From the NCBI GenBank assembly GCA_964374105.1, contig CAYJXI010000007.1, forward strand, positions 13,096 to 77,095: a DNA stretch of 64,000 nt, read 5' to 3'. The translations under genes and the position numbers were made by a program. The notes beneath the pieces are model-generated. The model saw only the letters and a list, made by a program, of their open reading frames with translations, made no database searches and was not told the origin of the DNA. The stretch comes from an uncultured Planctomycetales bacterium (lineage in GTDB: Bacteria; Omnitrophota; Gorgyraeia; Zapsychrales; JANLHA01). Positions 3,075 to 41,253 of this stretch are shown piece by piece (within the stretch, counting starts at the first letter, position 1; every line of letters begins with the position of its first letter).

Positions 3075-3126
3075 TCTTCAAGGAAATCATTTTTCATCTA
3101 TCTTGGGAATCAGACGGTTTTAGAGG

Positions 3127-13169: not shown

Positions 13170-13261
13170 TTGCCGTCTAAAGAGCAGGGATAGGGCATGC
13201 CCGTCTTGTTTCGCATCGAAAAGAGTGGCCTGCTCTTTTCTTCAAAGATATCCTGATTTAA

Positions 13262-13292
13262 GAAAAGTGGCCACGTGGCCACTTTTCTCTTG
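13262..13292 (+). terminator. Terminator-like perfect palindrome gaaaagtggccacgtggccacttttc followed by a T-rich tract
   Basis: 26-nt perfect inverted repeat with tctcttgg after it, about 90 nt downstream of the corA stop. Confidence 0.45.
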
Positions 13293-13775
13293 GAGGTGTG
13301 CCGAGCATGAACAGTGGTTAGAGAGGGTGAGTTCAGAACATCGTATACCCATAACAGGATTACGCCTTTTGATTATGGTTACGAGATCCGTTTCGGTCAA
13401 GGTTACGTTATTCGCTTCTTCTCAACGACAAACGTCACCGAAAGCCGATACGGTTATCGTCTCCGTAACCGAAGGATGTAAGACAGAGTGTCGTTACCAG
13501 AGTAAACGATGTCTTGATATTTGACATGTAGTTGAGGGGTCGGAGAGTTTCCGACCCCTCATGACCCCTCGGGTAAGGTAGCTTAAAAACTCCCCGAGTG
13601 GTCATGTAGTTAGAAGAGTCAATCAACAAAGAAGTGATTTTTGTTGCCTTCTCTACCCTGTGCCCTCTCAAGAAATGTGGTTTACGACCCCCACCTTGTT
13701 AATTGCTGCAAATAATTTTATACTTTTATTAAGATAAATCTTAAAATTCATCCTTATAATTTTCAAATAAAACAA

Positions 13776-16700
13776 GTGATGTTCCAAACAAAAGTTTCTA
13801 GATTGTTTTTGAAGGTCACAGCCCTTCTTGTTATTTTCTCAATGGTTGTGACATCGAATCTTTTATTTCTGGGAGAAAGGGCCTATGCCCAAGTCATTAA
13901 CCTAGGATCCAGTGGGCTTACTCTTCCCTCTCCCGGCAGTCTTGTCTCGTTGAGTGCTGGGTTTCAACCGGTTGTCCTGAAAGGTATTAAAGTATATCCG
14001 CAGAATCCATTCCATTTTGACTTTATTGTTGATACCGGCGACAGCAAACTTAAAGAAGACCAGTTAAAGCAGGAGTCGACCAGACTGATTAAATATTTTC
14101 TGGCCTCCTTGACTGTTCCAGAAGATCAGATGTGGGTGAATTTATCCCCTTATGAAAAGGAACGGATCATCCCGGAAAGCTTTGGTGTCACCGAGATGGG
14201 ACGGGATATGTTACTGCAGGATTATCTCTTAAAGCAGTTAACTGCCTCGTTGATTTACCCGGAGCATGATTTGGGGAAGGCCTTTTGGGAGAAGATCTAT
14301 CAGAAGGCCTATGAGCAGTACGGGACAACAAATATTCCGGTCAATACCTTCAACAAGGTGTGGATTCTACCAGAGCGGGCAGTTGTCTATGAACACGAAG
14401 GGATGGCCTTTGTGGGGGAATCCCGCTTGAAGGTGATGCTGGATCATGATTATCAGGCTTTAAGAAGTCAACTGCTAAAGGATCAAGGTGCCACGGATCC
14501 CTCGCTTAAGGCTAAGGAGGTTAATGATCTTTCCGGCTCAATAGTCAAGGATTTGATCGTTCCGGCGATTGAAAAAGAGGTCAACGAAGGGGAAAACTTT
14601 GCCAATTTGCGGCAGATCTATCATTCGCTAATTTTGGCGGCTTGGTATAAGCGGACTTTGAAGGAGAGTCTTCTAGGTCAACAGTATGTTGATCAAAATA
14701 AGGTCAAAGGCATTGACCTTGAAGATAAAGAGATCAAGCAAAAGATCTATGAGCAATATCTTAAGGTGTTTAAGAAAGGGGTTTACAACTATATCCGGGA
14801 GGATTACGATCCCTACACCCAAGAATCCATCCCTCGCAAGTATTTCTCAGGAGGGATTGAGTGGAAGATCAATGAAGATTTACAAGTCACTAATGTGAGG
14901 GAAAAGAAAACATTCACAAGGCTCTTTCAAGGAGTTGTGGCGGGTGTGGTCATGCTGGCGAGTGTGGCCTTAAGAAGTCCTGCCTATGCTCAAGACAATA
15001 CCATATCACCTCTTCCCCAACCTCCAGCCCCTGGCCTATTAGAAAATGAGGAAAAGCCTATCGAAAAAGAAGCCCCCAATCAAGGTGTGGTCATTAAAAA
15101 CTTGGACTCAATCGCTAAAGAAGGCCCTCTTGATGAGAAAGATTTTAAAGATGGCTTTGACTTGAGGGATGCTTTAAACGCTATCTATCAATCGGATGAA
15201 GCTGATGAGTTTAAACAGAAGGTTGTCTCAGCCAAAATATTTTCAAGGCTTTTTAATGTTTATTATGAAAATCTGATGGATGAGAAGAAGGCTGATCGTT
15301 TAAAAGTGCGTGCAGTTCACTTAGCTGAAATTGTTGGTACTATTTTAAGGCATCAGCAAAATGAGATTGAAGAAGAAATTCTTGAGAACGATATTATCGG
15401 GAAAATTCGCAATATTTATCACGCGGAGGTTGTCAATCGCAAACTGCTCTTTGAGTTAGCAAGAACCGGCCCTTCTTCTCATGAGGAGGGTTCCTCCCTG
15501 AAACAACCCAATCGAAGCTATTTCAATTGGGTGTGGCAAGAAAAAATCCAGGAACATATTGATGAAGGAAGGTTCCCCAATATTCAACAAAAGTTTGGCC
15601 CGCAAGTACCATCTTTAAGAGATCAAATGAGATTTTATAATGGAGGGGCATTTGAGCTGACCAAGGCCGTTGTTAAATTAGGCCAATCAAAAAATCAAAG
15701 AGTAATAAAGGAGATCAAAAAGGCGGGATTAATCAAATCCCTTTTTCATTACGCAACCCTTCCTTCTCCTGTTAATGGTTATGTCTCTGCCACTACCGAG
15801 ACCATGTTGGGTCTAGCCGAAATCATCGAAGCCCAGCCAGGGTTTTTCTTAGAAGAACTCAATGAGATCGATGAGGTCCTTGGCCAGAGCATAGTAGATT
15901 TTATCAAAGACAACCTTGGGAAAGAACACGCTGCCCCTTATCAAAGATTAACAGATTCTAAAGCATCACCAAGTTATGAAAAAGCCTTTAGAAAGATTAA
16001 AGAAGCTACCACAGATGCAACCTCATTCATTGATGAGGCGGATTTCTCGATAAAAGTTTCCCAAGAAGTCTTAGAAACTTTAAGAAAGACATCCAGTGGG
16101 CAAGATGAGAACGGTTATTTTCTTTTTGTGAATAAAGGAACTGGTGTCATTGAGAAAGTAACGAATAGGTATGTTCATTCAAACAGGACGAATTTTTACG
16201 TTAACGAAGGTTTTCTTCATTACGCCAATGAGCTTGCCAAAAAACATGGGTATCTTTTGATCGGAGATTTTCATGCCCATCCGGATACCTTTATTAACCT
16301 TAAAGAGATGCCAGAAGAAGGATTCAAAGATGATGGCAGGGCCTATGATTTGTTAAGTCGGGGAGATTCCGTTTCGGGTCAGGTAAGGACTAAGCAACTG
16401 AATTTTTTGGGTGTGGGTTTCGATGGGAACTTTGAGGTTTTAGTCTATTTGCCCCTTTTTGAAAAAACACTGGGTGTGGGGCATGCTTATCTTAAGAGAA
16501 AAGATGAATTTCTAGACAAAGGTGTTTTTCCGGCTAGATCGCGGGTCATCAAAAATAGAAGTCAAGAGCTCGTGAGATTAAAATTAAAGGTCGTTGATTC
16601 AACAGTTCCGAGTGACCTAGATATCTTGGATCAATATCCCCCTTTCATCAAACAGAGTAAAAAGGAATTGAATTCTCAAGAATATGGTGATCTCATTTAT

Positions 16701-19700
16701 AACCTTAAAAAGATTGGCCTTGCTAACATGACGATTACATCCGCTGGATTAAAGATAAAGGGACTCGAGGCAAGGTTACAAGCCTTACGCGATCGACTAC
16801 AGACAGAGGATGTTAAAAAAGAAATAGAGAACTTACAAGAAGAAATCCAAAAATTAAGAAAAGTCTCTTATGAAAAAGACCATGATCATTTTGATTTTGT
16901 AGGAGAAAAGGATCCGGGAGTCATTATTTTTGTGGAAAGACAAGATGGAATCTTTGTCATCAGCGGTTCGGTTAATGACATCGATGATTTCCAATTGTGG
17001 TACAAGGAACACGATGGTTCTATTGCTACTTTGCTATTTCGGGTTGGGACAAACTTATATACAGCACACGAGAAAGATGCAACGGAAGTTGCCAGATTTT
17101 TACAATCATGGATAAAAATGCATAAAGCAGGGATAGGGGAGGGTATCTTGCAAAAGGTATCAGCAATAGAGAATCTCCCTCGTCAAGTCGGTGCTTTGTT
17201 GCGGGAGAATCAGGTGGAGGAATTGGATAATTTTGTCTCGGAAGAATACCTTAAGTTCATCAATACTAATCAAACATTGCTTGAGGAGTTTACCAGGGGA
17301 GTCTTGGATCGGGGTGTTTCGATTGAAACATGGGAACTTCTTCAAAAGAAAGGTGGCCCGTGGGGAAAAATTGCTAATAGTGTCTTAAAGAAATTGGGTG
17401 GGGAGGCAGAAATTCTCAAGAAGACAAAGCAGATCATTGATGATGGCATCAAGGAAAAGCGAACTCCTCAAGAATTAAGGCAGAAACTTACGGAGCTTAT
17501 AAAATATAGCAGTATCTACCGAGATATGATCTCTGGAGGAGTGACTCGATTGATTGAAAAAAGAAAGGTTGAAAATGATTTTGCGTTGAGATTGTTTGTG
17601 GTTTATGTGGCTAAATATACCTATGTTTATCTTTTAGATCAGCTAGGTCTGAGGGGTGAGGAGTTTGATAACTTTTTAGAAGAGTTTTTAGACTCAACCA
17701 CCCCTTATTATGAGGATAAACTGATTTGGGATGGGACAATTGATTATAAAGAAGGACATATCAAACCAAATTTAAATGCCAAGATCCGCGGGATCGAATG
17801 GATATTTGATATAGTCATCCACGAAGCGATCCATAAGATTGTTGCCGCCGATTGGATGCGGGAATATTTAAGATTAAATTTTGGTGATGACATGCGTTGG
17901 CTGTTGGCTACAGCGTTGGGGAGATTCAATGCCGGCATTATGGAAGGGACATTTCTTGAAGCGGGATTTCAACCTCCCTTTGGAAAGGAGACTTTTGTGG
18001 ATCGCCAAAGAACACCCTTCTTAACCCATGCAAAATTTCGTCTTATCCCTGATACGATTAGAACATGGGATGAAGTTGTCAAATATATCGAAGAGAATAA
18101 AGGGGGAAAAACCTGGGGTGATGAGCCAGGCAAATCCTATATCGAAGGAGATCTCTTAGCGGTATACTCAGCCTATCATTATGGTAAGGGGGGGGGTCTT
18201 CTTATCAGACTTTACGGAACCCGATTCAAGGAATTGAATTTTGCTCAGATGGAGTTGGCGGCAGCGGTTCTAAGGAATATCTTAAAGGGTCATGAGGTAG
18301 AAGGGTCGTTTTTTGATTTGGAAGAGAAAATCATCGTTGAGGTAAGAAAATTAGATTTGAGAGATGATACGACCTACGAGACCTTAGAGGAAAAAGAAAA
18401 GGGACTGACCGAATCTTTAATAAAAGAGTTGAAAGAAGCCGGTCAAATTAAAGAAGTCAAAAAGACTTCCCAAAATATCCGTGATCGAGAGGAGACTAAA
18501 AAAGATCAGGCGATTCTGACGGATGGCTTAAATGCCCAAGGGATTGCTCAACTTGACTATGGAGCGATTGTCTCGGCTATCAAAAAAGCAGAAGAACAGC
18601 ATGTCAGTCCCCTTGATTTGGCTCGTGAGCTTTTCCAAAAAAACAATATATCATTGGATGAACAAAATCAATTAACTCTTTATACCTTCCTTGTCGTTCT
18701 TGATGCCTTAAGGAGAATCGGGATAGTTTATGAAAATCTTCAGCCCCCCACTTTGGTGGGGATGATGAGGGTGCTTCTCCCTCATTTAAAGAGCTTGGAT
18801 CCTCAAAACAAAGATCCTTTGGGGACCATCAGAAAAATTGAGGAAGGTATTAATGATAGAAATTCAAAGATCTTTCAAGAGTTTATTGAGCATATCCTTG
18901 ATGTTAAGGATTTAATCTCCCCCACGACCGGACGAAGCCGATATCCTGACCAGACCTTTTTCTTGCAAGAATTTGCCCTGCCGCGGTTGATTGCCTTTAA
19001 AAAGATGAGGAATGACCGGGTGATCCGAATCGGGAGTCTGGGTTCATCCACTGGAGAAGACTTAATGAAATTGGCTGAGACGGTTTCGATAGTCTTCCAT
19101 CAGACTGGGGAAAACTTAAACGATTGGAAAATCATTTTGGAAGCGCGGGATGTCTCAGCTAAGTCCCTCAATGTGTTTAGAGAAACAGCGCAAGCGGAAT
19201 TGACTCATCCTGTTTTTCAGATTGAAACAAAAGTGACGATTCTGGGGGATAAGGAAGATCTCAAGGAGATTTCCAATCTTTCCTATGACATCTTAGCGGT
19301 TCGAGCAGTTGGGGAATATTTAAGGCCGCAGATAAGGACACAATTAGGAGATGCTCTTCATTCCACTTTGCTTCTTTCCGATCGTCATATCATCCCCAAC
19401 AATGAATCTTATCTCTCTTTCGCTGAAGTGGGACCTTTTCAGAATGTGCACCAATCCCGAAAAGGGGATTTCCCTCTGATTCAACTTAAGCCTCAAGAAC
19501 AAGAAAAAATCAAAGAATATCAAATCAAGAAAATGATTCCTCTGATCCAATTGGAACTTAAAGAGGCCATCCCGCGTATCTTTGCAGAGGAAGGGCAGAT
19601 CAGAGAGCTCATTGAAACGTTAGCACAAGAAACAAAGGAATCTTCAGATACCATTTTCAAGTTCATTATGGATTCTGCCCGTCATGTCGATTTGGAAGAT

Positions 19701-22700
19701 GAAGAAAGAATCAAGGCCTTACTCTTTGATGAAACGAAAGCAGAAGAGACAGGGACTTTTGCTGAATTTAAAGAGAGGGTTATGAAAGGATGGGATAAAA
19801 GGAAGAAATCCCCTCAGGGGGAGGAAGGCATTAAGAAAGATGAGGCAATCCTGACAAGTTTAGAAAAATTGGAACAAGATTTTTTAGACGGGACTCTGTT
19901 ACAAGAAGGAATTGCTCGAATCAATCAAGAGCATCCAGAGTTAAATATTAGAAAATCTTCCGACATTTCCAAACTTAATAGCAAAGTCGCTAATTTCGAT
20001 ATTGCCTTTTTACCTTTACTGACCAAAATCCCTCAGGCGGTTTTGACCGATCAAGATTGGGGGATTTATCGACTGACTAAAGAAGGAATTGAATTGAGAA
20101 GTGGGGATGGGATTCAGAAAGAATTGATTCCCTTTACGAAAGAGGCTCAAGCGCTTATCGCTAAACTCCTAGAGAAGTATGAGGAGGTTTACTTCGACCA
20201 AAGAATTAATGCAACAACGAAATCCTATGTTGTCCACCCCTTTTATTACGATCAAGGAGATATGTCAATCGCCATTTCTTTGATTAGACGGGGTATTGAT
20301 TTGGTAAGTCAAACAATTGATATAGATCATGAAGAACACCGCAGGGTTTTATTTACCGATGAAGAATGGGACATGAATATTCATCAAGATCGACCTATGC
20401 CGGTGCAGTTTACCTTAATCATCTTAGGTCTTTTGGAAAGATTGCCAGCGATTTTAAGACCGGGGGTCACAAGAGAGGATTGGTACTGGGTCCCACGCGA
20501 GAGTGGTATTGAATTTGTCAATAAAGTGACGGGTGAACATGAATGGGTCAATTTTACTCCCGATGAAACGGTTTTGAATTTACCAGAAACTCAAAAGATC
20601 AGGCACATCTTTGAGATTTTAAGGTTATTACCTTCGCATCATGCCATGAATGACTTGGATCAGAAGTTGTTAAAAAATGAACAAGGGTTATTAACGATGT
20701 ATGATCAATTGCGATTAGCTATCCAAAGAAATTTTGATGATCATGTTCCTTTAGCCTACGATCAATATGAAATTTTAGCCGGCCTAAAAAATCGAGGGAA
20801 GGTCCTAGAGCAAGAAGCGATCAACAGCCGATTCACGTTAAGAGAATTACAACTTATCTATGCAATGTTGTCCTCCTTACCTAGAGAAATTGTTGATCAA
20901 TACCAAGATCAATTCTTTTCTTTTCGGCCTCGGGAATTAAGAAATTTTACACAATCTTATCCAGAAGATGGGCATGCCTCTTTGGTGATTGCACCTTTAA
21001 ATATGCGGGAGGTATGGATGTTTTGGGATATCATTCGAAGTAAAGAAATCCGTGGCTATTTAGGTCAATTCACGAAAGAGAAAATCATTGAACTTTCTTT
21101 TATCCGGATGCTTTTGCACGAGCTAGCCCACCGGGTCTATAAAAATCTTGATACAAAACTTCAACGTGCTTATGGTGGGATTTCCTGGGATATGAAGTCT
21201 TGGACTGGACAGGAAGCCACGAAAAAAAGGAACCAGGGGAGGCGTTTCTTGGGAAAACATTTCCTCATTGATTATGCCTTCCCTGAGGAAGATAATTCGC
21301 AAGAAGATTTTGTGGATCAGTTCTCGGCTTATATTTTATTTGGTCCCCAGTTTCGAAGGGCAGCCGAACGTTCCGCCGCCATCAAGGCCAAATATAATTT
21401 TTTTAAGAATATATTCAAAGGGAATGAGTACGAAAGGAATTTTGATTATCATGCTAAAGTCCCTCAGATCGATCAGGCAATGATCACACAGGATGAACTG
21501 AAACAAAAGCAGGCTAAAGTGGATCAGATGTTAGAGCAGGTGCGTGCCTTGCGGGAGGGGCCTCACACATCCCTTAATCTTAAAAAGACCGCTGAGGATT
21601 TTGAAAAAGTTTATCCGCGATTGTTAGAATTTTCCGATCACCTCATTCAGCGTTATCAAGAGATAGCGAATCGATACAGATTAAACCCAGGTGAGATAAG
21701 ACTTTATATGGTTGGTGGACGTGTGAGGGGAACGCCACTTAAAGAAGATAGTGATATTGATTTGATTTTTGCAGTGGAGAATCCGGGAAGTTCATTGGGA
21801 AGAATTCCGTTTGAGCGATTTTCCGATCCATTAGAAGCATGGGATTTTAAATTAGATCGGATGAAGGAATTGTTGGCTGATGTATCCAAGATTTCAAATC
21901 AGTTAGGTGTTAGGAACCTTTTTCATATTTTAAGTCTTGATGTAAAGATTCCTGAGGATGATTTGATTGTAACCCAAGAGAGACTTTTATTAGCAAAATC
22001 GAAGGGACAAACGACTGCCTTTCCCGCAACGACGACAACCCCTCAACGAGATGAGGCGATGGTGACGCCAGATCGTCAGCCCCAGCAGATCTTGATGGAA
22101 AGGATGGGCTTTGCCAGTGCTATGCTGGAATTGAAATTGAATATTCATGGTTTGGAGATGGAGAATCTCTTTCAACATTATGAGAAAGAACATGACGCTT
22201 ACATCTTAGACGATAAAGTCATGGATGTGATGGGACAACTGGGTGGGATGAAAAATGGGGAGGCTCTTAATTTGGTTGGTTTTGTTTTTATCCGCGGGAG
22301 CACGGTAGAAAAACTTAAAACAGCTGATAAGGAGGCATTCCTCTCTTTAAGGCATGAACAGAGGCACAATGATTATCATGCCATTCACGGCTATGCCATT
22401 GAATCCAGCGAACAAAAACTCATTGATGAATTGTATGCTTACTTTGCCTCATTTATCCAAATCTACGGGGTGGAAGGCCTCACAACAATCCAAGAACGAC
22501 AGATCGGCACAGGCCCCTGGGCCCAGATTGTTCTCAATGTCCTCATTCAGGATTATTTGAAGGATGAGCGTGAGGAGGCACTTAAAGCAGATCTCATTGA
22601 ACGGCTTCGCTATGTGGCCAGTATCTTAGATTGGTATTTAAAAACTCAAGATCCCAATATGATCTTGGAATTTTTAAAAACAGCCACCTCATTGAATCAA

Positions 22701-23801
22701 ATCTTGGCAATGGTGAATTTTGATTATCTCAAAGACAATTTGAAAGAAAAGATTCCTTTAGAAGAATATGAGCGGCTTGCTGGCCAATTTAGAAAATTTA
22801 GAAGTGATTTCCAAACAATGAAATCAAAAGAGGGTGGCCGTGCTTCTCAATTTGAGGCAAATCCCCAACGCGACCAGGCGATGGTGACAAAACCAGGAGA
22901 ACCATTGATCCCTCCTTTATGGGAAGGGCAGATTCGGTATGTTCCGGAAGCGATGGTCAAGAAGGGAGGCTGGAAACTCCATTTGCGGGTTCAACCGCAT
23001 GGAAGATTCGCAGAGATTATCCACAAGTGGCTGTGGAGGAATACAAAAAAAGGAGAGGTCGGTTATAAATATTTACATGGGGGAGACAAGGGAGAAAAAG
23101 ATTTTACAATTTATGTAGGACCTAAAAAAGATGCTGATCAACTGGCCATCAAAATTTCCCAAGAGATTGGGTATCTCTTAAGGAATCCAGGAGAACATAT
23201 TCTCGAAACAGACATCGAATTCGCTCCCAAAGTCTGGGGCCGGTTCGATGTGAAGGATATTGAAGGGAATCAATACTTCTATGGGATGGTAAGGGCGGGT
23301 GTTGAAGGAACAGGGATTCCCATCTTGAAGAAAGATTGGCATGAGAGGTTTAGATTATTGTTTAATTATGGGAAGCCCCGCTCACCACAACAAGAGAAAG
23401 CCGACCACAAGAAACTGCGCCAATCAGAACCATTGTTTATCCAAAGAGCGTTTGATCTCTTGAAAAATGAGTTGGGAGACTATTTTACAGGCGGGGCAGA
23501 AAATGTCGAAGGGCTTTCTCCTAAAGGAGAGAGACCTTTGGAACAAGAGGGGAAAAGTAAAGATGAAGCTATGATCACAAAGCCTGTTGGTGGGATTGAC
23601 TTTGCACCTGGGAATTTGATTTTGGATATAAAGAGAGATGCTAACGGGGCGCCACTTCCTTTGCCAGTTCAGCAGATGCAGCAGATCAAAATTGATGGAC
23701 TTGTGCCGGTGATTATTCAGATCACACCGGTGACGAATTTCCCACTTCTTTTTGGCCTGTCGGAACAAGGGACCGAAGAACAGCTTTCCTTAAAGGATTG
23801 A
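13776..23801 (+). CDS. Giant (3341 aa) secreted/membrane-anchored multidomain protein of unknown function
   Basis: Uninterrupted 10,026-nt ORF with an N-terminal hydrophobic signal/anchor (...FLGERAYAQ). Internal motifs include HEAIH, HELAH and an NTase signature GGRVRGTPLKEDSDIDLIFAVEN. Confidence 0.8.
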   Translation: MMFQTKVSRLFLKVTALLVIFSMVVTSNLLFLGERAYAQVINLGSSGLTLPSPGSLVSLSAGFQPVVLKGIKVYPQNPFHFDFIVDTGDSKLKEDQLKQESTRLIKYFLASLTVPEDQMWVNLSPYEKERIIPESFGVTEMGRDMLLQDYLLKQLTASLIYPEHDLGKAFWEKIYQKAYEQYGTTNIPVNTFNKVWILPERAVVYEHEGMAFVGESRLKVMLDHDYQALRSQLLKDQGATDPSLKAKEVNDLSGSIVKDLIVPAIEKEVNEGENFANLRQIYHSLILAAWYKRTLKESLLGQQYVDQNKVKGIDLEDKEIKQKIYEQYLKVFKKGVYNYIREDYDPYTQESIPRKYFSGGIEWKINEDLQVTNVREKKTFTRLFQGVVAGVVMLASVALRSPAYAQDNTISPLPQPPAPGLLENEEKPIEKEAPNQGVVIKNLDSIAKEGPLDEKDFKDGFDLRDALNAIYQSDEADEFKQKVVSAKIFSRLFNVYYENLMDEKKADRLKVRAVHLAEIVGTILRHQQNEIEEEILENDIIGKIRNIYHAEVVNRKLLFELARTGPSSHEEGSSLKQPNRSYFNWVWQEKIQEHIDEGRFPNIQQKFGPQVPSLRDQMRFYNGGAFELTKAVVKLGQSKNQRVIKEIKKAGLIKSLFHYATLPSPVNGYVSATTETMLGLAEIIEAQPGFFLEELNEIDEVLGQSIVDFIKDNLGKEHAAPYQRLTDSKASPSYEKAFRKIKEATTDATSFIDEADFSIKVSQEVLETLRKTSSGQDENGYFLFVNKGTGVIEKVTNRYVHSNRTNFYVNEGFLHYANELAKKHGYLLIGDFHAHPDTFINLKEMPEEGFKDDGRAYDLLSRGDSVSGQVRTKQLNFLGVGFDGNFEVLVYLPLFEKTLGVGHAYLKRKDEFLDKGVFPARSRVIKNRSQELVRLKLKVVDSTVPSDLDILDQYPPFIKQSKKELNSQEYGDLIYNLKKIGLANMTITSAGLKIKGLEARLQALRDRLQTEDVKKEIENLQEEIQKLRKVSYEKDHDHFDFVGEKDPGVIIFVERQDGIFVISGSVNDIDDFQLWYKEHDGSIATLLFRVGTNLYTAHEKDATEVARFLQSWIKMHKAGIGEGILQKVSAIENLPRQVGALLRENQVEELDNFVSEEYLKFINTNQTLLEEFTRGVLDRGVSIETWELLQKKGGPWGKIANSVLKKLGGEAEILKKTKQIIDDGIKEKRTPQELRQKLTELIKYSSIYRDMISGGVTRLIEKRKVENDFALRLFVVYVAKYTYVYLLDQLGLRGEEFDNFLEEFLDSTTPYYEDKLIWDGTIDYKEGHIKPNLNAKIRGIEWIFDIVIHEAIHKIVAADWMREYLRLNFGDDMRWLLATALGRFNAGIMEGTFLEAGFQPPFGKETFVDRQRTPFLTHAKFRLIPDTIRTWDEVVKYIEENKGGKTWGDEPGKSYIEGDLLAVYSAYHYGKGGGLLIRLYGTRFKELNFAQMELAAAVLRNILKGHEVEGSFFDLEEKIIVEVRKLDLRDDTTYETLEEKEKGLTESLIKELKEAGQIKEVKKTSQNIRDREETKKDQAILTDGLNAQGIAQLDYGAIVSAIKKAEEQHVSPLDLARELFQKNNISLDEQNQLTLYTFLVVLDALRRIGIVYENLQPPTLVGMMRVLLPHLKSLDPQNKDPLGTIRKIEEGINDRNSKIFQEFIEHILDVKDLISPTTGRSRYPDQTFFLQEFALPRLIAFKKMRNDRVIRIGSLGSSTGEDLMKLAETVSIVFHQTGENLNDWKIILEARDVSAKSLNVFRETAQAELTHPVFQIETKVTILGDKEDLKEISNLSYDILAVRAVGEYLRPQIRTQLGDALHSTLLLSDRHIIPNNESYLSFAEVGPFQNVHQSRKGDFPLIQLKPQEQEKIKEYQIKKMIPLIQLELKEAIPRIFAEEGQIRELIETLAQETKESSDTIFKFIMDSARHVDLEDEERIKALLFDETKAEETGTFAEFKERVMKGWDKRKKSPQGEEGIKKDEAILTSLEKLEQDFLDGTLLQEGIARINQEHPELNIRKSSDISKLNSKVANFDIAFLPLLTKIPQAVLTDQDWGIYRLTKEGIELRSGDGIQKELIPFTKEAQALIAKLLEKYEEVYFDQRINATTKSYVVHPFYYDQGDMSIAISLIRRGIDLVSQTIDIDHEEHRRVLFTDEEWDMNIHQDRPMPVQFTLIILGLLERLPAILRPGVTREDWYWVPRESGIEFVNKVTGEHEWVNFTPDETVLNLPETQKIRHIFEILRLLPSHHAMNDLDQKLLKNEQGLLTMYDQLRLAIQRNFDDHVPLAYDQYEILAGLKNRGKVLEQEAINSRFTLRELQLIYAMLSSLPREIVDQYQDQFFSFRPRELRNFTQSYPEDGHASLVIAPLNMREVWMFWDIIRSKEIRGYLGQFTKEKIIELSFIRMLLHELAHRVYKNLDTKLQRAYGGISWDMKSWTGQEATKKRNQGRRFLGKHFLIDYAFPEEDNSQEDFVDQFSAYILFGPQFRRAAERSAAIKAKYNFFKNIFKGNEYERNFDYHAKVPQIDQAMITQDELKQKQAKVDQMLEQVRALREGPHTSLNLKKTAEDFEKVYPRLLEFSDHLIQRYQEIANRYRLNPGEIRLYMVGGRVRGTPLKEDSDIDLIFAVENPGSSLGRIPFERFSDPLEAWDFKLDRMKELLADVSKISNQLGVRNLFHILSLDVKIPEDDLIVTQERLLLAKSKGQTTAFPATTTTPQRDEAMVTPDRQPQQILMERMGFASAMLELKLNIHGLEMENLFQHYEKEHDAYILDDKVMDVMGQLGGMKNGEALNLVGFVFIRGSTVEKLKTADKEAFLSLRHEQRHNDYHAIHGYAIESSEQKLIDELYAYFASFIQIYGVEGLTTIQERQIGTGPWAQIVLNVLIQDYLKDEREEALKADLIERLRYVASILDWYLKTQDPNMILEFLKTATSLNQILAMVNFDYLKDNLKEKIPLEEYERLAGQFRKFRSDFQTMKSKEGGRASQFEANPQRDQAMVTKPGEPLIPPLWEGQIRYVPEAMVKKGGWKLHLRVQPHGRFAEIIHKWLWRNTKKGEVGYKYLHGGDKGEKDFTIYVGPKKDADQLAIKISQEIGYLLRNPGEHILETDIEFAPKVWGRFDVKDIEGNQYFYGMVRAGVEGTGIPILKKDWHERFRLLFNYGKPRSPQQEKADHKKLRQSEPLFIQRAFDLLKNELGDYFTGGAENVEGLSPKGERPLEQEGKSKDEAMITKPVGGIDFAPGNLILDIKRDANGAPLPLPVQQMQQIKIDGLVPVIIQITPVTNFPLLFGLSEQGTEEQLSLKD

Positions 23802-24156: not shown

Positions 24157-24540
24157 ATGAAAAGAATTTACGAAATATCAACCTTTTTGATGATCTCCAT
24201 TCTTATTTTGGGTTTGGTTTCTTGCTGTTGTGCCAGTGAGATTAACTGGGGGGCTTTAAATACTGAGACCTGCCATCAAGACCCCTTTCATCATCAACAA
24301 TCGCCCCAAAATTCGACGGATGACAATCATTGTGATTGCCCAGTTCTTATTGGTGTCAACCCATCGTTTGGTATTGACTTTAAGTCTCAGATGGCTTTTA
24401 GCCAACAACTCCATTTTGAGAATTTAAGCCATTTGGGTTCTTCAATTCAAATTGTTCTCACCGTGAATTACAATCAAGGACCTCCCAAAGGTTCTTTAAC
24501 CCTCCCGCTGTATCTTAAGAATTCTGTCCTTCGGCTTTAA
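24157..24540 (+). CDS. Small secreted His/Cys-rich hypothetical protein (possible metal-binding)
   Basis: Signal peptide/lipobox-like LVSCCC, then HQDPFHHQQSPQNSTDDNHCDCP. Sits directly upstream of the cusCBA-like operon. Confidence 0.35.
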   Translation: MKRIYEISTFLMISILILGLVSCCCASEINWGALNTETCHQDPFHHQQSPQNSTDDNHCDCPVLIGVNPSFGIDFKSQMAFSQQLHFENLSHLGSSIQIVLTVNYNQGPPKGSLTLPLYLKNSVLRL

Positions 24541-24656
24541 TCCGCCTTAAAGATAATCATTCTTATTTTTCTTCATTATTTCATACAAACTTTGTCTCAA
24601 AGTTGTTACAATTGACTTGTTGTAAATTCTTTTTAAGGAGAAGACAAGGAGAGAAA

Positions 24657-25922
24657 ATGAAAAAATTGGGGTTAGTATCATTGATTTTGATTCCCATGAT
24701 TTTTCCTGGGCAGATTGCGGCTGAGGAGGCCTTGCCTTCGAACCTGTCGGATTTGATTGAACAGGCCGTTAAAAATAATCCCTCGATTAAGGCGCAATAT
24801 AGCCAATGGCAGGCCGCCAAAAACCGTGTCCCGCAGGCTTCGAGTTTACCCGATCCTATGGGTGGCTACGCGGTCATGGGGCCGATGCTGGAGACGCGGT
24901 TAGGTCCCCAGAAAGATATGTACGAATTTGAACAAATGATTCCCTTTCCTGGGAAACTCTTTGAGCGAAGAAAAATGGCGGAAGCCCAGGCCCGGATGGC
25001 TGAGGCCAAATACAAAATGACCGAGCAAGAGGTGATCTTGAGGGTCAAAGAGGTCTATTACGATCTTTTTTCCGTGGAGGCCTCTTTAAGGATTTTAGAG
25101 GAAATCCGAGATTTAATGAGGAACTTTGAATCGATTGCCCAAGCGAGGTATGCCAGTCAGTCCGCAGGTCAGGGGGAGGTGGCCAAGGCCCAGGCCGAAG
25201 TTTCCGAGGCGTTAAAACAGATTTTTACGCTTCGCCAACAGAAAGAAACTCTGGTAAGCCTGATGAATTCTCTTCTTAATCGCGATCATTCCACTCCTTG
25301 GGAAGGACTCATAACCGAACCCACCTTGCCGCCCTTGGATCTCAATCTCGAAGAATTACTCACCGAGGCTAGAAACAATCGTCCCGAACTGAAAGAAGCA
25401 TTGGCTATGCAAAAAAGAGAAGAGCACGGCAAGTCTTTAGCCAAGTATGAATATGCCCCGGATCTGACGGTGGGTTTCCAATATTTTCGTATTGGAGAAC
25501 GTGAAACCAATGAGGCCGATGATGGTCGGGATGCCTGGATGATTCCCATTAAATTTACTATCCCTTTGTGGCAGAATCGAATTGTCCCCACCATCGCGGA
25601 GGCCAAAAACAATTTAAAAGCCAGTGAAGCACGCTTTAGGGAAGTTAGCAATGAAACCGAATATGAAATCAAGCGTGCTTTTTTTCAATTTACAAATCAG
25701 AAACAAATTGTGGAGCTCTATCGGAATGCCTTTATCCCGCAGGCCGAGTTAGCTTTTCGCTCGGATCAAGCGGGGTATGAATCGGGGTCAACCGATATTT
25801 TACAACTGATTGACAGCGAAAGGGTTTATCTTAATGCAAAAATGTCTTATTATCAGACATTAGCTGAGGTCATGAAGAGTTTTGCAGTTATCGAAAGAAT
25901 TGTGGGAAAAGAATTGAAATAA
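24657..25922 (+). CDS. TolC-like outer membrane efflux protein (CusC/OMF family)
   Basis: Signal peptide, then two OEP-type repeats (LSDLIEQAVKNNPSIKA... and LEELLTEARNNRPELKEALA...). The ATG at 24657 follows aaggagag. Confidence 0.8.
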   Translation: MKKLGLVSLILIPMIFPGQIAAEEALPSNLSDLIEQAVKNNPSIKAQYSQWQAAKNRVPQASSLPDPMGGYAVMGPMLETRLGPQKDMYEFEQMIPFPGKLFERRKMAEAQARMAEAKYKMTEQEVILRVKEVYYDLFSVEASLRILEEIRDLMRNFESIAQARYASQSAGQGEVAKAQAEVSEALKQIFTLRQQKETLVSLMNSLLNRDHSTPWEGLITEPTLPPLDLNLEELLTEARNNRPELKEALAMQKREEHGKSLAKYEYAPDLTVGFQYFRIGERETNEADDGRDAWMIPIKFTIPLWQNRIVPTIAEAKNNLKASEARFREVSNETEYEIKRAFFQFTNQKQIVELYRNAFIPQAELAFRSDQAGYESGSTDILQLIDSERVYLNAKMSYYQTLAEVMKSFAVIERIVGKELK

Positions 25923-25938
25923 GAAGGGAGTAAGCATC

Positions 25939-27357
25939 ATGTCACGAAATAAATTTGTGGTCCTACTCATAATCATTCTTATGATCACGGGAGTGATTCT
26001 CACCATCAAAGGAGGGAATCTTCCCCGCTCTCAAAATAAAAAGGAAAAGGCGGTTTACTATTGTCCTATGCACCCAACTTACATCAGTGATAAGCCCGGG
26101 GATTGCCCTATCTGTTATATGAAGTTAGTCAAGAAAGAAGATTCCAATCCCGTGCCAGCAAAAGAACAAATGGTGCAAAGGATGAAAGACATTTGCATCA
26201 TGCACAATTGTCCTAAAAAACATGAGGGTAAAATTTGTCCGATGTTGATGGTGACCGAAGAAGGTGAAAAGGTTACCTGTCCTATTTGCGGGATGCATGT
26301 GGTGGGAGAAACGGCCGCACTTAAAGAGAAAAGAATTTTGTATTGGACGGACCCCATGATCTCGGGATATAAATCAGAAAAACCGGGGAAATCACCCATG
26401 GGAATGGATTTGATTCCTGTTTATGAAGAAGAGGGTGTAACTCAATCCCAAGGATCAACTCCTGAAGGTTATGCCTCAGTTGTTCTTTCTACTCAAAAGC
26501 AGCAATTGATCGGTATCAAAACGGCAAAGATCGAGAAAAAAAGGCTCAACAAAACAATTCGAACAGTTGGTACCATTGCCCATGACCCAGAACTTTATCA
26601 AGCCCAATCGGAATATATTCAAGCGATTAAGGCTTACCAACAGGCGCAAGCAAGTTCTATCCCAGAAATTGTTGACCAATCCAAACGCCTGCTGGAATCC
26701 ACTCGAATTCGTTTGAAACATCTAGGCCTCAGTGATGATCTGATTGAAGAAATCGCCACATGGAAAGAGCCGGAGCACAGCCTGCTTTTTGCCCATCCGG
26801 GAGATCCAGTATGGATGTATGCCCAAATCTACGAATTTGAACTGCCCCTGATTAAAGTTGGGCAGGAAGTTGATGCGGGAATCCCTTCTCTTCCCGGTGA
26901 AGTTTTTAAAGGGAAAATACGTGCGATTGATCGAATGGTTGAACCAACGACAAGAACGACCCGAATTCGGGTCTTAATAGAAGATCTTAAAGGGCACCTT
27001 AAACCGGATATGTATGTCAATGTCACGCTCAACATTGATCTGGGGGAAACTCTCACCGTTCCGGTTGAGGCGGTTTTTAATACCGGCACACGACAGATTG
27101 TTTTTCTTGATGAAGGTCAGGGGATCTTTACTCCCCGCGATGTTGTCTTAGGAACAAAGACAGAAAATGATTATGAGGTTAAAGAGGGTCTTAAAGAACA
27201 GGAAAGTGTCGTTGTCAGCGGCAACTTCTTGATTGATTCCGAAAGCCGTCTTAAATCGGCCATTGAGGGAATGATTTCTGAAAAAGGAAGTCCTAAAGGC
27301 AGCCCAATGGCTGAAGAGCCATCCTCAACGACAGGAGGCAATCGCCATGGACAATAG
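25939..27357 (+). CDS. Efflux RND periplasmic adaptor (CusB-like) with N-terminal tandem metal-binding motifs
   Basis: N-terminus carries YYCPMHPTYISDKPGDCPICYMKLV (heavy-metal-binding domain), two further Cys-rich copies, and a degenerate copy YWTDPMISGYKSEKPGKSPMGMDLIPV. This is followed by the membrane-fusion-protein body (HlyD-like beta-barrel/lipoyl regions). Confidence 0.8.
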   Translation: MSRNKFVVLLIIILMITGVILTIKGGNLPRSQNKKEKAVYYCPMHPTYISDKPGDCPICYMKLVKKEDSNPVPAKEQMVQRMKDICIMHNCPKKHEGKICPMLMVTEEGEKVTCPICGMHVVGETAALKEKRILYWTDPMISGYKSEKPGKSPMGMDLIPVYEEEGVTQSQGSTPEGYASVVLSTQKQQLIGIKTAKIEKKRLNKTIRTVGTIAHDPELYQAQSEYIQAIKAYQQAQASSIPEIVDQSKRLLESTRIRLKHLGLSDDLIEEIATWKEPEHSLLFAHPGDPVWMYAQIYEFELPLIKVGQEVDAGIPSLPGEVFKGKIRAIDRMVEPTTRTTRIRVLIEDLKGHLKPDMYVNVTLNIDLGETLTVPVEAVFNTGTRQIVFLDEGQGIFTPRDVVLGTKTENDYEVKEGLKEQESVVVSGNFLIDSESRLKSAIEGMISEKGSPKGSPMAEEPSSTTGGNRHGQ

Positions 27358-30300
27358 TCTTAAAAAATCCAATCCATCTCCCATTGAAGAAACAGGGGGG
27401 GAGCGGGAAAATAATGATGGCATTATTGAAAAGGTGATTGACTTCTCGGCCCGCAACAAGTTTATCATTTTCATTCTCATCATTGCCGCTATGATGGCCG
27501 GGTATGTCTCTTTAATAAATATCCCTTTGGATGCGATTCCTGATCTTTCTGACACTCAGGTCATTATTTACTCTCGGTGGGATCGTAGTCCCGATATCAT
27601 TGAGGACCAAGTGACTTACCCGATTGTGACAGCGATGCTGGGGGCGCCTCAAGTCAAGGCGATCCGCGGATTTTCGGATTTCGGATTTTCTTATGTTTAT
27701 GTCATCTTTAAGGATGGAACTGATGTTTACTGGGCGCGCAGTCGCACCTTGGAATACTTAAGTAAGATCATCCCGCGTTTGCCCGAAGGGGTTAGAACCG
27801 AATTGGGACCGGATGCCTCCGGGGTGGGGTGGGTCTATCAGTATGCCTTGGTGGATAAATCTGGGCAGCATAGCCTGCAAGAGTTAAGAAGCTTTCAAGA
27901 TTGGTACCTGCGTTATCATCTGCAGAGTGTTCCGGGAGTCGCGGAGGTTGCTTCTCTAGGAGGGTTTGTCAAACAGTATCAAATCACAATTGATCCTAAT
28001 AAACTCCTTGCGTACAACATATCTCTCCCTAGGGTTATTGAGGCCGTCCGCAAAGGGAATCAGGAGGTGGGAGGCAGACTCCTGGAATTTTCCGGGGCCG
28101 AGTATATGGTTCGGGGGCGTGGTTATGCAAAGTCCATCAAGGATTTGGAAGACATTGTGGTAGAGACCAAGGAGAAGGGAACGCCTATTTTGGTTAAAAA
28201 TTTGGGCAATGTGGCCTTGGGGCCGGAAATCCGTCGGGGATTGGCGGATCTGGATGGAGAAGGAGATGTGGTGACCGGAACTGTGGTGATGCGTTATGGA
28301 GAAAATGCCCTCAATGTCATCAACAGGGTCAAAACGAAACTCAAAGAGATTGAACCCTCTCTTCCTAAGGGCGTGGAAGTGGTCAGCCTTTATGATCGTT
28401 CGGAACTCATCAAACGTTCCATTGATACATTAAAGGAAAAACTCCTTGAGGAAATGATTACCGTGAGTTTGGTCATTCTTCTTTTCCTCTGGCATTTAAG
28501 GAGTGCCCTGATTCCGATTTTTACCTTACCGATTGCGGTTCTGATTTCTTTTATACCAATGTATTCGATGAAATTGACCTCCAATATCATGTCTTTGGGG
28601 GGTATCGCTATTGCCATTGGAGCGATGGTGGATGCCTCGATTGTCCTCATTGAAAATGCCCACAAACGCATTGAACGTTGGAAAGAGGAAGGCCGAAGAG
28701 AACCTTATAATGAAGTTTTGATTTCAGCGGCCAAGGAAGTAGGCCGTCCGATCTTTTTTTCTCTGCTAGTGATTGCGGTGTCATTTATTCCGATCTTCAG
28801 TCTGGAGGCCCAGGAGGGGCGGCTTTTTAAACCCCTCGCCTTCACCAAGAATTATGCGATGGCCTTTGCCGCTCTTTTGTCGGTCACGTTAGCACCCGCC
28901 TTGATGCTTTTATTAATTCGGGAGACAAAGTTTACCTTTAAACCCCGCTGGCTCAGTTCCCTTCTAACCTTCTTTGCCGGTGGAGAAATTCATGCCGAGG
29001 AAAAACATCCCGTCAGCCGTATCTTATTTCATCTTTATGAACCGATTGTCAAATGGGTGGTGGATTACCGTCAAGGTGTGATTGGCTTGGCTGTCATCTT
29101 GGTTCTTCTGACCGTGCCGGTTTACTTCTGGATTGGCCAAGAATTCATGCCGCAGCTGAATGAAGGATCTCTCCTCTATATGCCCACCACTTTACCCGGG
29201 ATTTCTGTTACTGAGGCCCAGCGTTTACTGCAGACTCAGGATAAAATCCTTAAAGGATTTGAAGAAGTCGAAAGAGTCTTCGGAAAGGCGGGACGAATAG
29301 AAAGCTCAACAGATCCTGCCCCCTTTTCAATGATGGAAACCGTGGTGACCTTAAAACCGCAGAACCAATGGTCACGCAAAATCTCTTATGAAGAACTGAT
29401 CTCCCAAATGGATGAGGTTTTAAGGATCCCCGGTTCCACCAATGCCTGGACCATGCCGATCAAGAATCGGATTGATATGCTCACAACGGGAGTAAGGACT
29501 CCTATTGGAATTAAGATATTCGGAGATGATCTTAAAAAAATAGAAGGGATCGGGATTGAGCTTGAGGTGATTTTAAAAGGAATTCCTGGGACACGGAGTA
29601 TTTATGCCGAACGGGTTGCCGGCGGATATTTTCTTGATTTCGATTTGAAACGCGGGGAATTAGCCCGTTACGGGCTAACCGTGGAAGACGCCCAGATGAT
29701 TATTATGACTGCTATCGGAGGAGAAAATATCACCACAACAATCGAAGGCCGGGAACGGTATCCGGTGAATATCCGTTATCCTCGGGAATTACGTGATGAT
29801 GTCGAGAAACTCAAACGGGTTTTGGTCCCCACTCCTTTGGGACAACATATTCCCTTGGTTCAAATCGCTGACATCGTTTTACGTTCAGGGCCGGCGATGG
29901 TCCGCAATGAGAATGGGTTACTGGCTGGTTACGTTTATGTGGATATGACCGGACGCGACCTGGGGGGTTACGTCAAGGAAGCCAAACGGATTGTCCGCGG
30001 AAAATTAAAGCTTCCCACCGGTTATGCCATTGTCTGGAGTGGTCAGTATGAAAATATGGCAAGGGTCATGCAACGGTTGGTAGTGGTCCTTCCCATGACC
30101 TTATTTATCATTTTCTTTTTGCTATACGTCAATACTAAATCCTTAGTCAAAACTTTTATTGTTTTGTTGGCTGTTCCTTTTTCTCTGATTGGGGCTTTAT
30201 GGCTCTTGTGGTTGTTGGGTTACAATATGTCGGTTGCGGTTTGGGTGGGGTTGATTGCCTTAGCCGGAGTGGATGCCGAGACAGGGGTCATTATGCTTTT

Positions 30301-30613
30301 GTATCTTGATTTGGCCTATGAGGAAGCAAGACGCAAAGGCACGATGAAAACTTTTGAACAATTGAAAGAAGCGATCATTCACGGGGCCGTGAAACGAATC
30401 CGTCCCAAAATGATGACGGTGGGGACAACGTTTATGGGACTCTTGCCTATTATGTGGGCCGCCAGTTGGGAAACCGGCGCCGATGTGACGAAACGCATCG
30501 CCGCTCCCATGGTGGGGGGCATCTTCACGTCCTTTATTATGGAATTATTGGTTTATCCGGCGATTTATGCGGTCTGGAAATGGAATTTTGAAATGAAGAA
30601 AGGTAACCGCTAA
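27347..30613 (+). CDS. cusA: Heavy-metal efflux RND transporter, CusA/CzcA family
   Basis: 1088 aa with 12 TM segments and two large periplasmic loops. Conserved HME-RND blocks are present (e.g. GIAIAIGAMVDASIVLIEN, AVWVGLIALAGVDAETGVIM). It overlaps the adaptor gene by 11 nt. Confidence 0.9.
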   Translation: MDNSLKKSNPSPIEETGGERENNDGIIEKVIDFSARNKFIIFILIIAAMMAGYVSLINIPLDAIPDLSDTQVIIYSRWDRSPDIIEDQVTYPIVTAMLGAPQVKAIRGFSDFGFSYVYVIFKDGTDVYWARSRTLEYLSKIIPRLPEGVRTELGPDASGVGWVYQYALVDKSGQHSLQELRSFQDWYLRYHLQSVPGVAEVASLGGFVKQYQITIDPNKLLAYNISLPRVIEAVRKGNQEVGGRLLEFSGAEYMVRGRGYAKSIKDLEDIVVETKEKGTPILVKNLGNVALGPEIRRGLADLDGEGDVVTGTVVMRYGENALNVINRVKTKLKEIEPSLPKGVEVVSLYDRSELIKRSIDTLKEKLLEEMITVSLVILLFLWHLRSALIPIFTLPIAVLISFIPMYSMKLTSNIMSLGGIAIAIGAMVDASIVLIENAHKRIERWKEEGRREPYNEVLISAAKEVGRPIFFSLLVIAVSFIPIFSLEAQEGRLFKPLAFTKNYAMAFAALLSVTLAPALMLLLIRETKFTFKPRWLSSLLTFFAGGEIHAEEKHPVSRILFHLYEPIVKWVVDYRQGVIGLAVILVLLTVPVYFWIGQEFMPQLNEGSLLYMPTTLPGISVTEAQRLLQTQDKILKGFEEVERVFGKAGRIESSTDPAPFSMMETVVTLKPQNQWSRKISYEELISQMDEVLRIPGSTNAWTMPIKNRIDMLTTGVRTPIGIKIFGDDLKKIEGIGIELEVILKGIPGTRSIYAERVAGGYFLDFDLKRGELARYGLTVEDAQMIIMTAIGGENITTTIEGRERYPVNIRYPRELRDDVEKLKRVLVPTPLGQHIPLVQIADIVLRSGPAMVRNENGLLAGYVYVDMTGRDLGGYVKEAKRIVRGKLKLPTGYAIVWSGQYENMARVMQRLVVVLPMTLFIIFFLLYVNTKSLVKTFIVLLAVPFSLIGALWLLWLLGYNMSVAVWVGLIALAGVDAETGVIMLLYLDLAYEEARRKGTMKTFEQLKEAIIHGAVKRIRPKMMTVGTTFMGLLPIMWAASWETGADVTKRIAAPMVGGIFTSFIMELLVYPAIYAVWKWNFEMKKGNR

Positions 30614-41234: not shown

Positions 41235-41253
41235 ATAAAAGAATAAAAGGTGA

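Follow-up and report, generated by a model that had tools for sequence, protein, structure and literature searches.

What does a single gene of 10 kb encode when its product, taken as a whole, resembles no named protein family? The question is raised by a stretch of DNA of 64,000 nucleotides (nt), here called the window, from an uncultured Planctomycetales bacterium that GTDB places in the Omnitrophota (assembly GCA_964374105.1, contig CAYJXI010000007.1, positions 13,096 to 77,095). On its forward strand, one unbroken open reading frame (ORF) occupies 13776..23801 and spans 3341 codons from a GTG start, as seen in the ORF listing and its translation. A preliminary description of this locus had portrayed the product as a secreted or membrane-anchored multidomain protein with catalytic-looking motifs and as a candidate for an undescribed system of adhesion, attack or effector delivery. 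The signal site and module map given below bear out the first part of that portrayal; the second part is weighed further on. Sequence comparison places the window protein solidly in a large unnamed family restricted to Omnitrophota. As read from sequence, the family layout is a Sec signal peptide, an N-terminal domain (N-domain) of about 320 amino acids (aa), a variable number of variable modules and a C-terminal domain (C-domain) of about 65–80 aa, with the short motif D-x-A-M at module boundaries.

The gene and its product

The second codon of the ORF is an ATG at 13779. Because an identical 3340-aa copy in a public protein collection begins at this Met, 13779 is the likelier start; residue numbers used here are counted from the GTG codon at 13776. 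The 90% cluster of the 3340-aa protein contains two further members of the same length, one encoded on a 55.8-kb contig from NCBI and the other on a 14.4-kb contig from Logan, and each is identical to the window protein at 3339 of 3340 positions, with one substitution. Since the 3340-aa version recurs in two other assemblies, the ORF is not an assembly chimera. The 10-kb gene is real, and the uninterrupted reading frame of the preliminary description stands.

Searches of Pfam and NCBIfam with the whole 3341-aa protein gave no match above cut-off, and a PDB sequence search was likewise empty. The earlier statement that the protein belongs to no named family thus holds for these databases, whereas the impression of an unplaceable one-off does not, given its membership of a huge paralogous family in Omnitrophota. 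Nor is the protein strongly Lys/Glu-rich, as had been claimed: its contents of K (7.9%) and E (9.0%) compare with 7.6% and 7.3%, respectively, in 12 other proteins of the window, and a coiled-coil-like appearance is confined to short stretches.

An Omnitrophota family with a conserved head and tail

With the N-terminal 410 aa as query, 1529 protein clusters were matched (E-values down to 1e-139; 50–66% identity to the more than 100 homologs listed), and nearly all of the named matches are Candidatus Omnitrophota/Omnitrophica. At least 587 N-domain loci were confirmed when each species was represented by a single genome. The best 80 of these all lie in metagenome-assembled genomes (MAGs) of Omnitrophota, including depositor-labelled 'uncultured Planctomycetales' and Candidatus Aceula (Omnitrophota); among them, up to five loci occur in one MAG, some in tandem arrays. 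Members at such loci run from about 400 aa to more than 3700 aa, the longest extending past the flanking sequence retrieved. The window itself holds a single family copy. An exhaustive HMMER search with aa 2559-3341 returned 1811 relatives. This distribution agrees with the earlier guess, made from protein size and genome composition, of a giant protein from an uncultivated, possibly epibiotic or predatory lineage. The N-domain was found in 3 of 2.9 million viral contigs, which together with the chromosomal neighbourhood rules out a phage or plasmid origin.

In the family alignment the N-domain has about 80 invariant positions, and the window protein carries every one of these columns. The C-domain, with which complete members commonly end, follows the pattern GGID[LF], about 30 variable residues, then G-[FIL]-x-P-V-I-I-N-I-x-P-x-x-N-L-P-x-L-L-G. 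In the exhaustive HMMER search it stood always at the extreme C-terminus, in members of 400–4134 aa, and the N-domain accompanies it in every full-length protein examined. The window copy is 47–59% identical to the top listed C-domains elsewhere, with all invariant columns present, and the Pro-rich C-terminus pointed out in the preliminary description proves to be part of this conserved domain.

Head and tail also share a pattern, G-[FL]-x-P-V-[VI]-...-P-x-x-N-...-F, which lies in the first beta-hairpin of the N-domain at aa 61-84 (GFQPVVLKGIKVYPQNPFHFDF) and in the C-domain at aa 3309-3329 (GLVPVIIQITPVTNFPLLFGL). Invariant Gly-Gly pairs are found at the end of the N-domain (YFSGG) and at the start of the C-domain (VGGID). 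The resemblance between the two ends may reflect homology, docking or a Gly-Gly-specific protease.

A junction motif at the module boundaries

Six copies of D-[EQ]-A-[MI]-[ILV]-T are present in the window protein, at aa 1577, 2022, 2566, 2759, 3033 and 3263. They divide its last five modules and the tail, and Ile replaces Met in two of the six. Across 105 thousand amino acids (kaa) of family sequence past the N-domain, D-x-A-M was observed 159 times against 12.1 expected, an enrichment of about 13-fold; outside the C-domain, and with the exception of SSPV, no gapped tetrapeptide is enriched more strongly. Its density is 1.71/kaa in N-domain proteins and 0.18/kaa in giant proteins that share cargo modules and have neither the N- nor the C-domain; the motif therefore belongs to the family defined by these two domains and not to the modules. 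Successive copies are separated by a median distance of 251 aa (interquartile range 149–433).

The homology blocks that HMMER delineates in the window protein begin and end at junction motifs, and the homologous blocks in other proteins are bordered by D-x-A-M copies of their own. In the structure model of the last module, M6, the motif falls into a low-confidence N-terminal stretch, with a predicted local distance difference test score (pLDDT) below 50 for residues 1-4 and a mean of 59 over the first ten. The last copy stands directly before the C-domain, both here and in many relatives.

The junction is conserved as a peptide, and its synonymous sites vary. An internal Shine-Dalgarno sequence with a start codon is ruled out by this variation and by the two copies that encode Ile, and a nucleotide recombination joint by the roughly half of synonymous sites that differ between the two most similar linkers. 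SSPV, a second linker-like motif in family cargo, was observed 26 times against 1.1 expected, and it often stands just ahead of GGID in members without D-x-A-M at that place.

Probable export, cysteine depletion and internal signals

The hydrophobic N-terminal signal noted in the preliminary description was recovered with a predicted cleavage site, A-Y-A↓Q (the arrow marks the cut), at which A38 is conserved in at least 90% of 56 family homologs and Q39 is invariant. The protein contains no Cys in 3341 aa; at the 0.80% found in 46 other ORFs of the window, 27 would be expected (P about 2e-12). Across the family Cys makes up 0.11% of residues, and it is missing altogether from 12 of the 51 members above 1000 aa.

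Behind the N-domain lies a second hydrophobic segment, aa 379-404, with a basic N-terminal side, a core rich in Gly, Ala, Val and Ser, and then A-Y-A↓Q. A Sec- or Tat-like segment right after the N-domain occurs in 15 of 129 family members, two of them Tat-like (RRxFL). In L067 and P0052, twin-arginine-type motifs read RRQFLSKLG... and SRRRFLGML... and lie about 50-65 aa past the N-domain. The Tat pathway normally requires an N-terminal signal, and the internal motifs of both proteins look like relics of fused Tat substrates. The signals that follow the N-domain appear as if genes of already-exported proteins had been fused on, and we read the segment at aa 379-404 as the relic signal peptide of such a protein, in preference to a membrane anchor. 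This segment, the six junction motifs and the absence of Cys had gone unreported in the preliminary description.

Export of the giant protein is well supported, though indirectly, at the sequence level because the conserved A-x-A↓Q site, the Cys depletion and the internal Sec/Tat-like signals point the same way. We infer that the protein crosses the inner membrane via Sec and remains extracytoplasmic.

Cargo modules of the window protein

The cargo between head and tail was divided into modules labelled M1a to M6, whose coordinates are collected in Table 1.

Table 1. Features of the giant gene, its predicted product and the region upstream of it. Residues are numbered from the GTG codon, and nt positions are those of the window.
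Feature	Residues (aa)	Position (nt)	Strand	Remarks
Upstream intergenic region, 606 nt		13170..13775	+	Structured RNA; 3' part (about 13640-13775) AT-rich
Coding sequence, 3340-aa protein		13779..23801	+	ATG start; ORF listing and public copies
Sec-type signal peptide	1-38	13776..13889	+	Hydrophobic N-terminus; predicted cleavage AYA↓Q
Family-defining N-terminal domain	39-360	13890..14855	+	Contains WVNLSPYE; ends IPRKYFSGG
Second signal-peptide-like segment	379-404	14910..14987	+	TRLFQGVVAGVVMLASVALRSPAYA↓Q; hydrophobic-segment scan
M1a, no recognisable family	405-748	14988..16019	+	Pro-rich start
M1b, JAB/MPN-like	749-1135	16020..17180	+	H-A-H...S-R-G-D at aa 833-864
M1c, zincin-like	1136-1576	17181..18503	+	HEAIH at aa 1349, nt 17820
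M2, CheR-like S-adenosylmethionine (SAM) methyltransferase	1577-2021	18504..19838	+	Opens KKDQAILT; motif GSSTGED
M3, zincin-like	2022-2565	19839..21470	+	Opens KKDEAILT; HELAH at aa 2448, nt 21117
M4, Pol-beta-type nucleotidyltransferase (NTase)	2566-2758	21471..22049	+	Opens IDQAMIT; signature hGG-x12-D-I-D-L
M5, gluzincin-like	2759-3032	22050..22871	+	Opens RDEAMVT; HExxH then Glu
M6, phospho-Ser/Thr-lyase fold (RamC_N/LanKC-lyase/OspF-like)	3033-3262	22872..23561	+	Opens RDQAMVT; structure model
Family-defining C-terminal domain	3263-3341	23562..23798	+	KDEAMIT-KPVGGIDF...GLVPVIIQITPVTNFPLLFGL

The tool results indicate that several modules are enzymatic in nature, namely NTase, phospho-Ser/Thr-lyase fold, zincin-like with HExxH (and in one case the additional Glu), JAB-like and CheR-like. 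M1a gave no Pfam, NCBIfam or PDB match, and no local homolog of it was found. For M1b, the reference was the JAMM motif, E...HxH...SxxD, together with a profile match: a regular-expression search located H-A-H-x27-S-R-G-D, and the PADLOC JAB model matched aa 753-839 with E = 0.0027, with no match in Pfam. M1b is homologous to aa 1086-1472 of the family member P0224 (2.6e-65). M2 matched Pfam CheR (PF01739) over aa 1727-1802 with E = 0.0061 and 16.4 bits, below the curated cut-off of 27; GSSTGED alone resembles the CheR family, in which we take the equivalent to be GCSTGEE.

A motif scan recovered both HExxH motifs of the preliminary description, HEAIH in M1c and HELAH in M3, and added a third that had been missed, HEQRH at nt 22353 in M5. 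None of the three modules has a PDB sequence match, and M3, weakly WLM/SprT-like (Pfam WLM, E = 0.053), has the sole profile match among them. Blocks homologous to M3, bounded by junction motifs, occur in P0122, P0123, P0125 and P0128 (E-values down to 6e-86). M1c has at least one homolog, P0273, among the matches listed in a word-indexed search, and no Pfam match. For M5, 13 aligned homologs agree without exception in the H, E and H of the motif and in a Glu 21 residues downstream; a profile search gave no Pfam match and no significant PDB match.

For M4, the reference was the Pol-beta NTase signature, hG[GS]-x9-13-Dh[DE]h, together with a family-profile match. The signature VGGRVRGTPLKEDSDIDL lies at aa 2646 (about nt 21711), in agreement with the preliminary description. 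Homologs of M4 are mostly proteins of 160-200 aa, and one of its homologs, P0148, scored 23.1 bits against NTP_transf_2 in Pfam (cut-off 21), with the window copy below Pfam detection. A PADLOC oligonucleotide-cyclase model matched M4 with E = 0.013.

M6 carries the conserved signature GGWK-x-HL...K...RFD. Its sequence profile gave no significant match in the PDB, and the window copy is below Pfam detection. A structure model, made for this module from a clean alignment of its homologs, relates its fold to RamC_N (PF25816), to the lyases of class III lanthipeptide synthetases (CurKC, 8car; ThurKC, 8sam; LxmKY, 9dk1) and to the type III effectors OspF/SpvC/HopAI1. It differs from these phospho-Ser/Thr lyase relatives in sequence (9-16% identity) and in having no accompanying kinase or cyclase domain.

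According to the exhaustive HMMER search, M3 to M6 are each found again, in a different position, in further large proteins; some of these proteins have neither the N- nor the C-domain and carry other leaders or none. Because they recur in this way, the modules are mobile units. Elsewhere in the family the cargo includes NUDIX, HAD, methyltransferase, PP2C, HATPase, REC, HEAT, ankyrin, TPR, amino-acid dehydrogenase and CofD domains, and most family cargo has no Pfam match.

The locus L034:488-11092 encodes a complete member of 3535 aa in which the family head and tail enclose five PRTase-CE domains and a GDPD domain, with 13 D-x-A-[MI] motifs at a spacing of about 300 aa. At L044:2337-13132, L052:9202-15868 and L065:4443-12523, all in MAGs of other Omnitrophota, two or three paralogs that differ in cargo follow one another in head-to-tail order, which suggests local duplication followed by cargo exchange. 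Five proteins of 1100-3300 aa (P0123, P0125, P0128, P0135 and P0143) share cargo modules with the window protein, have a different leader that ends ...W-A-[YA]-P/D and show neither of the two end domains nor an enrichment of D-x-A-M; they may represent a second carrier family. M6 is also found in P0236, P0233, P0249, P0270, P0210, P0223 and P0198, proteins of 2100-5436 aa with Gly/Pro-rich N-termini and no signal peptide, which are reminiscent of the polyvalent proteins of mobile elements.

Proposed function and alternative explanations

We propose, as about an even call, that the window protein is a polymorphic effector-carrier polyprotein which is exported and probably processed, in function like MARTX toxins and polyvalent proteins without being related to either. 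The N- and C-domains would act as shared handles by which the protein is anchored in the envelope, exported further or targeted. Its cargo would be an enzyme cocktail aimed at another cell or its surface, a host or prey cell on which an omnitrophotan would live as an episymbiont or predator. The D-x-A-M linkers would be processing sites, or at least protease-accessible junctions, that free the modules, and the protease could be a metallopeptidase-like module of the protein itself or a shared enzyme acting in trans. We infer processing and delivery from the analogy with MARTX and polyvalent proteins and from the host-dependent lifestyle, episymbiotic or predatory, presumed for Omnitrophota (PMC10066038; 10.1101/2023.11.21.568195; 10.64898/2026.06.07.730766). 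The attack or effector delivery envisaged in the preliminary description is compatible with the peptidase-like, NTase, methyltransferase-like and phospho-lyase-fold modules and is kept here in conditional form. More tentative, and rather improbable in our judgement, is a further-reaching version, by which the N- and C-domains would constitute a previously unrecognised, Omnitrophota-specific system for exporting and processing polymorphic effector polyproteins. The two domains would direct the protein to the cell surface or into a host or prey cell, and D-x-A-M would be the long-sought cleavage points at which giant proteins of the phylum are cut into single enzymes.

Several observations weigh against the effector-carrier proposal. 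The NTase and methyltransferase cargo requires nucleoside triphosphates (NTP) and SAM and therefore fits action inside a cell, in the cytoplasm of either the producer or the target, and no device for translocation into a target was identified. The segment at aa 379-404 could act as a stop-transfer anchor, which would keep all cargo cytoplasmic. D-x-A-M is absent from some family members, and there are short members with the motif and without a peptidase module, so that any D-x-A-M protease would have to act in trans. The N- and C-domains have no relative in Pfam, NCBIfam, PDB sequences or PDB folds that could indicate what they do, and no neighbouring gene family is conserved across 80 family loci.

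It is possible, though we doubt it, that the protein is exported and stays intact as a surface or 'coat' protein, in which D-x-A-M would mark linkers, domain caps or fusion scars and neither cleavage nor delivery would take place. The position of the motif between domains, its conservation at the protein level only, the exchange of Met for Ile in two of six copies and its absence from some members all suit such a protein, and we know of no protease with D-x-A-M specificity. However, a tetrapeptide that is enriched 13-fold and absent from other giants with the same modules argues for a function within the N/C-domain system. Pfam and NCBIfam searches found no adhesin repeats and no lectin-type or other repeat domains in the protein, which speaks against a coat and leaves the adhesion once suggested for this locus unsupported. 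Moreover, the cargo is not mere scaffold, since catalytic residues are kept in the modules.

It is unlikely that the protein forms a cytoplasmic multi-enzyme scaffold tethered to the inner membrane, with the N-domain in the periplasm, aa 379-404 stopping transfer and a string of enzymes of about 2900 aa remaining in the cytoplasm, where it would serve the producer as a membrane-fixed 'assembly line' for regulation or metabolism. The NTP- or SAM-dependent cargo is of a cytoplasmic type, relatives contain REC, HATPase, dehydrogenase and NUDIX domains, and a hydrophobic segment does follow the N-domain here. In addition, multi-enzyme classes that are membrane-anchored or combine a signal peptide with a transmembrane segment dominate the Omnitrophota proteins of at least 10 kaa, according to one survey (10.64898/2026.06.07.730766). 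Yet only 15 of 129 family members have a segment at this place, two of these with Tat-type motifs, and the window copy, with its basic start, Gly/Ala/Val/Ser core and A-Y-A↓Q, looks like a signal peptide and not like a stop-transfer anchor. Such extreme Cys depletion, seen also in the GSSTGED of M2, would be unexpected for cytoplasmic enzymes, and the C-domain is always paired with the exported N-domain.

Membership of a known class of giant secreted proteins, whether RTX or type I adhesins and toxins including MARTX, type V autotransporters or type IX substrates, is highly improbable. It would accord with the size, with conserved ends around variable modules as in MARTX, and with the OEP, HlyD-like and AcrB-like genes downstream. 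These genes, however, form an RND efflux set without an ABC transporter that is not conserved beside other family members, and the protein has an N-terminal Sec signal. The preliminary description had named clear homology to a well-characterised RTX/adhesin family as one finding that would overturn its reading; a search for RTX nonapeptide repeats gave no GG.G.D match, and neither Pfam nor NCBIfam gave a match to RTX, an autotransporter beta-barrel, a CPD or a type IX C-terminal domain. A cysteine protease of the MARTX type is excluded by the absence of Cys. The C-domain is no type V or type IX translocator either, having no relative in Pfam, NCBIfam or the PDB and being, at about 65–80 aa, too short for a barrel. 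The missing repeats, domains and ABC transporter thus essentially refute these classes. Finally, an assembly chimera or artificial fusion of several genes, which the unusual length and the internal signal-peptide-like segment might suggest, can be dismissed, as the same 3340-aa ORF comes from assemblies of different sources and dozens of complete relatives (400–4134 aa) regularly show the bracket of N- and C-domain.

Comparison with known systems

In the MARTX toxins of Vibrio, conserved ends surround recombining effector modules that are freed by cleavage in inter-module linkers; these toxins use type I secretion and have glycine-rich repeats and an inositol-hexakisphosphate-activated cysteine protease domain. 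The proposed effector-carrier polyprotein would resemble them as a large secreted protein with conserved ends, variable modules and putative cleavage between them. In contrast to MARTX, it has a Sec signal, lacks glycine-rich repeats and Cys, and is unrelated in sequence.

Polyvalent proteins of phages and conjugative elements were reportedly described by Iyer, Burroughs, Anand, de Souza and Aravind in 2017 as strings of zincin, methyltransferase and NTase domains. They are often thought to be self-processed, have no signal peptides and travel with DNA. The likeness lies in the diverse enzymatic domains of one chain and in the occurrence of M6 in signal-less giants of up to 5436 aa, whereas the window family is chromosomal and has a signal peptide and dedicated N- and C-domains.

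Polymorphic toxins such as CdiA (VENN) and Rhs (PxxxxDPxGL) carry one C-terminal toxin after a demarcation motif, followed by an immunity gene. Common to both systems are a conserved trafficking part with swappable enzymes, a short junction peptide and many paralogs with different cargo. The window family differs in having several modules in series, a conserved C-terminal cap and, across the 80 loci, no conserved downstream gene.

Very long, exported or membrane-targeted, multi-enzyme and poorly annotated proteins of Omnitrophota are already described in published work (West-Roberts et al. 2023, 10.1101/2023.11.21.568195; Nielsen and Lui 2026, 10.64898/2026.06.07.730766; Seymour et al. 2023, PMC10066038). 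The window protein shares with them the phylum, export or membrane targeting, length, tiling of enzymes, poor annotation and suspected proteolytic processing. The published catalogues cover proteins of at least 10-30 kaa, and the window protein, at 3.3 kaa, lies below those size cut-offs. West-Roberts et al. (2023) state that cleavage points are unknown, which blocks the module-wise analysis of giant proteins (10.1101/2023.11.21.568195). In the consulted portions of the three sources no mention was found of the N-domain, the GGID...PVIINI tail or the D-x-A-M junction, and a full-text literature search for the tail-domain motifs gave no relevant paper. Giant multi-enzyme proteins of Omnitrophota as such are therefore a published phenomenon and not the undescribed system for which the preliminary description had seen a candidate here.

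Upstream region and genomic neighbourhood

A spacer of 606 nt separates the giant gene from corA. Its RNA fold has an energy of -198.7 kcal/mol, against -148.4 kcal/mol in shuffles (z = -7.58), and perfect palindromic hairpins lie at 13261-13288 and 13533-13561, which substantiates the structured region of about 600 bp noted earlier. A long-range paired core is seen at about 13300-13520. An Rfam search returned no family, and there is no second copy within the window; the spacer may act as a stack of terminators or as a long 5' leader, or it may encode an unknown RNA. The 'own AT-rich promoter' of the preliminary description was correct as regards the AT-rich 3' part and overstated as regards the promoter: one weak sigma-70-like site, at 13696-13724, matches the consensus at 9 of 12 positions, and such sites occur in the spacer region at chance level (26 against 23.8 in shuffles).

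Downstream, at 24157-30613, a small Cys-rich ORF (127 aa, 6 Cys, hydrophobic N-terminus) is followed by genes of the OEP, HlyD-CusB and AcrB types. With HMBD and ACR_tran domains and no ABC transporter, these constitute a Cus-type RND efflux set. They look like a metal efflux system and not like a secretion system for the giant protein, and in the 80 loci Cus-type efflux genes are not kept beside other family members.

Farther downstream, at 41250-49771, lies a cluster resembling type II secretion or type IV pilus genes, with a T2SSE ATPase carrying MshEN, a T2SSF platform protein and a PilM-like protein. Behind an N_methyl ORF of this cluster come three small ORFs whose N-termini are likewise prepilin-like. 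The region upstream of the cluster encodes receiver proteins and a PAS-histidine kinase that carries a PilZ domain.

Significance for the giant proteins of Omnitrophota

Omnitrophota are abundant and almost uncultured, and a life as epibionts or predators of other microbes is presumed for them. The giant proteins of this phylum are an acknowledged puzzle, being poorly annotated and lacking known processing sites or a known mode of action. The individual gene studied here is ordinary; its real interest is as the key to a family grammar. At least one large class of these giants obeys a simple, searchable set of rules, consisting of a head domain, a tail domain and a junction motif, by which such proteins can be split into modules for structure prediction and assays. 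The D-x-A-M motifs are concrete candidate cleavage sites that could be tested in existing metaproteomes, and the conserved N- and C-domains are obvious targets for learning how the proteins of this family are exported or anchored. The cargo of the window protein, together with the PRTase-CE, NUDIX and PP2C domains of its relatives, gives a hint that the phylum may harbour effector enzymes in large number.

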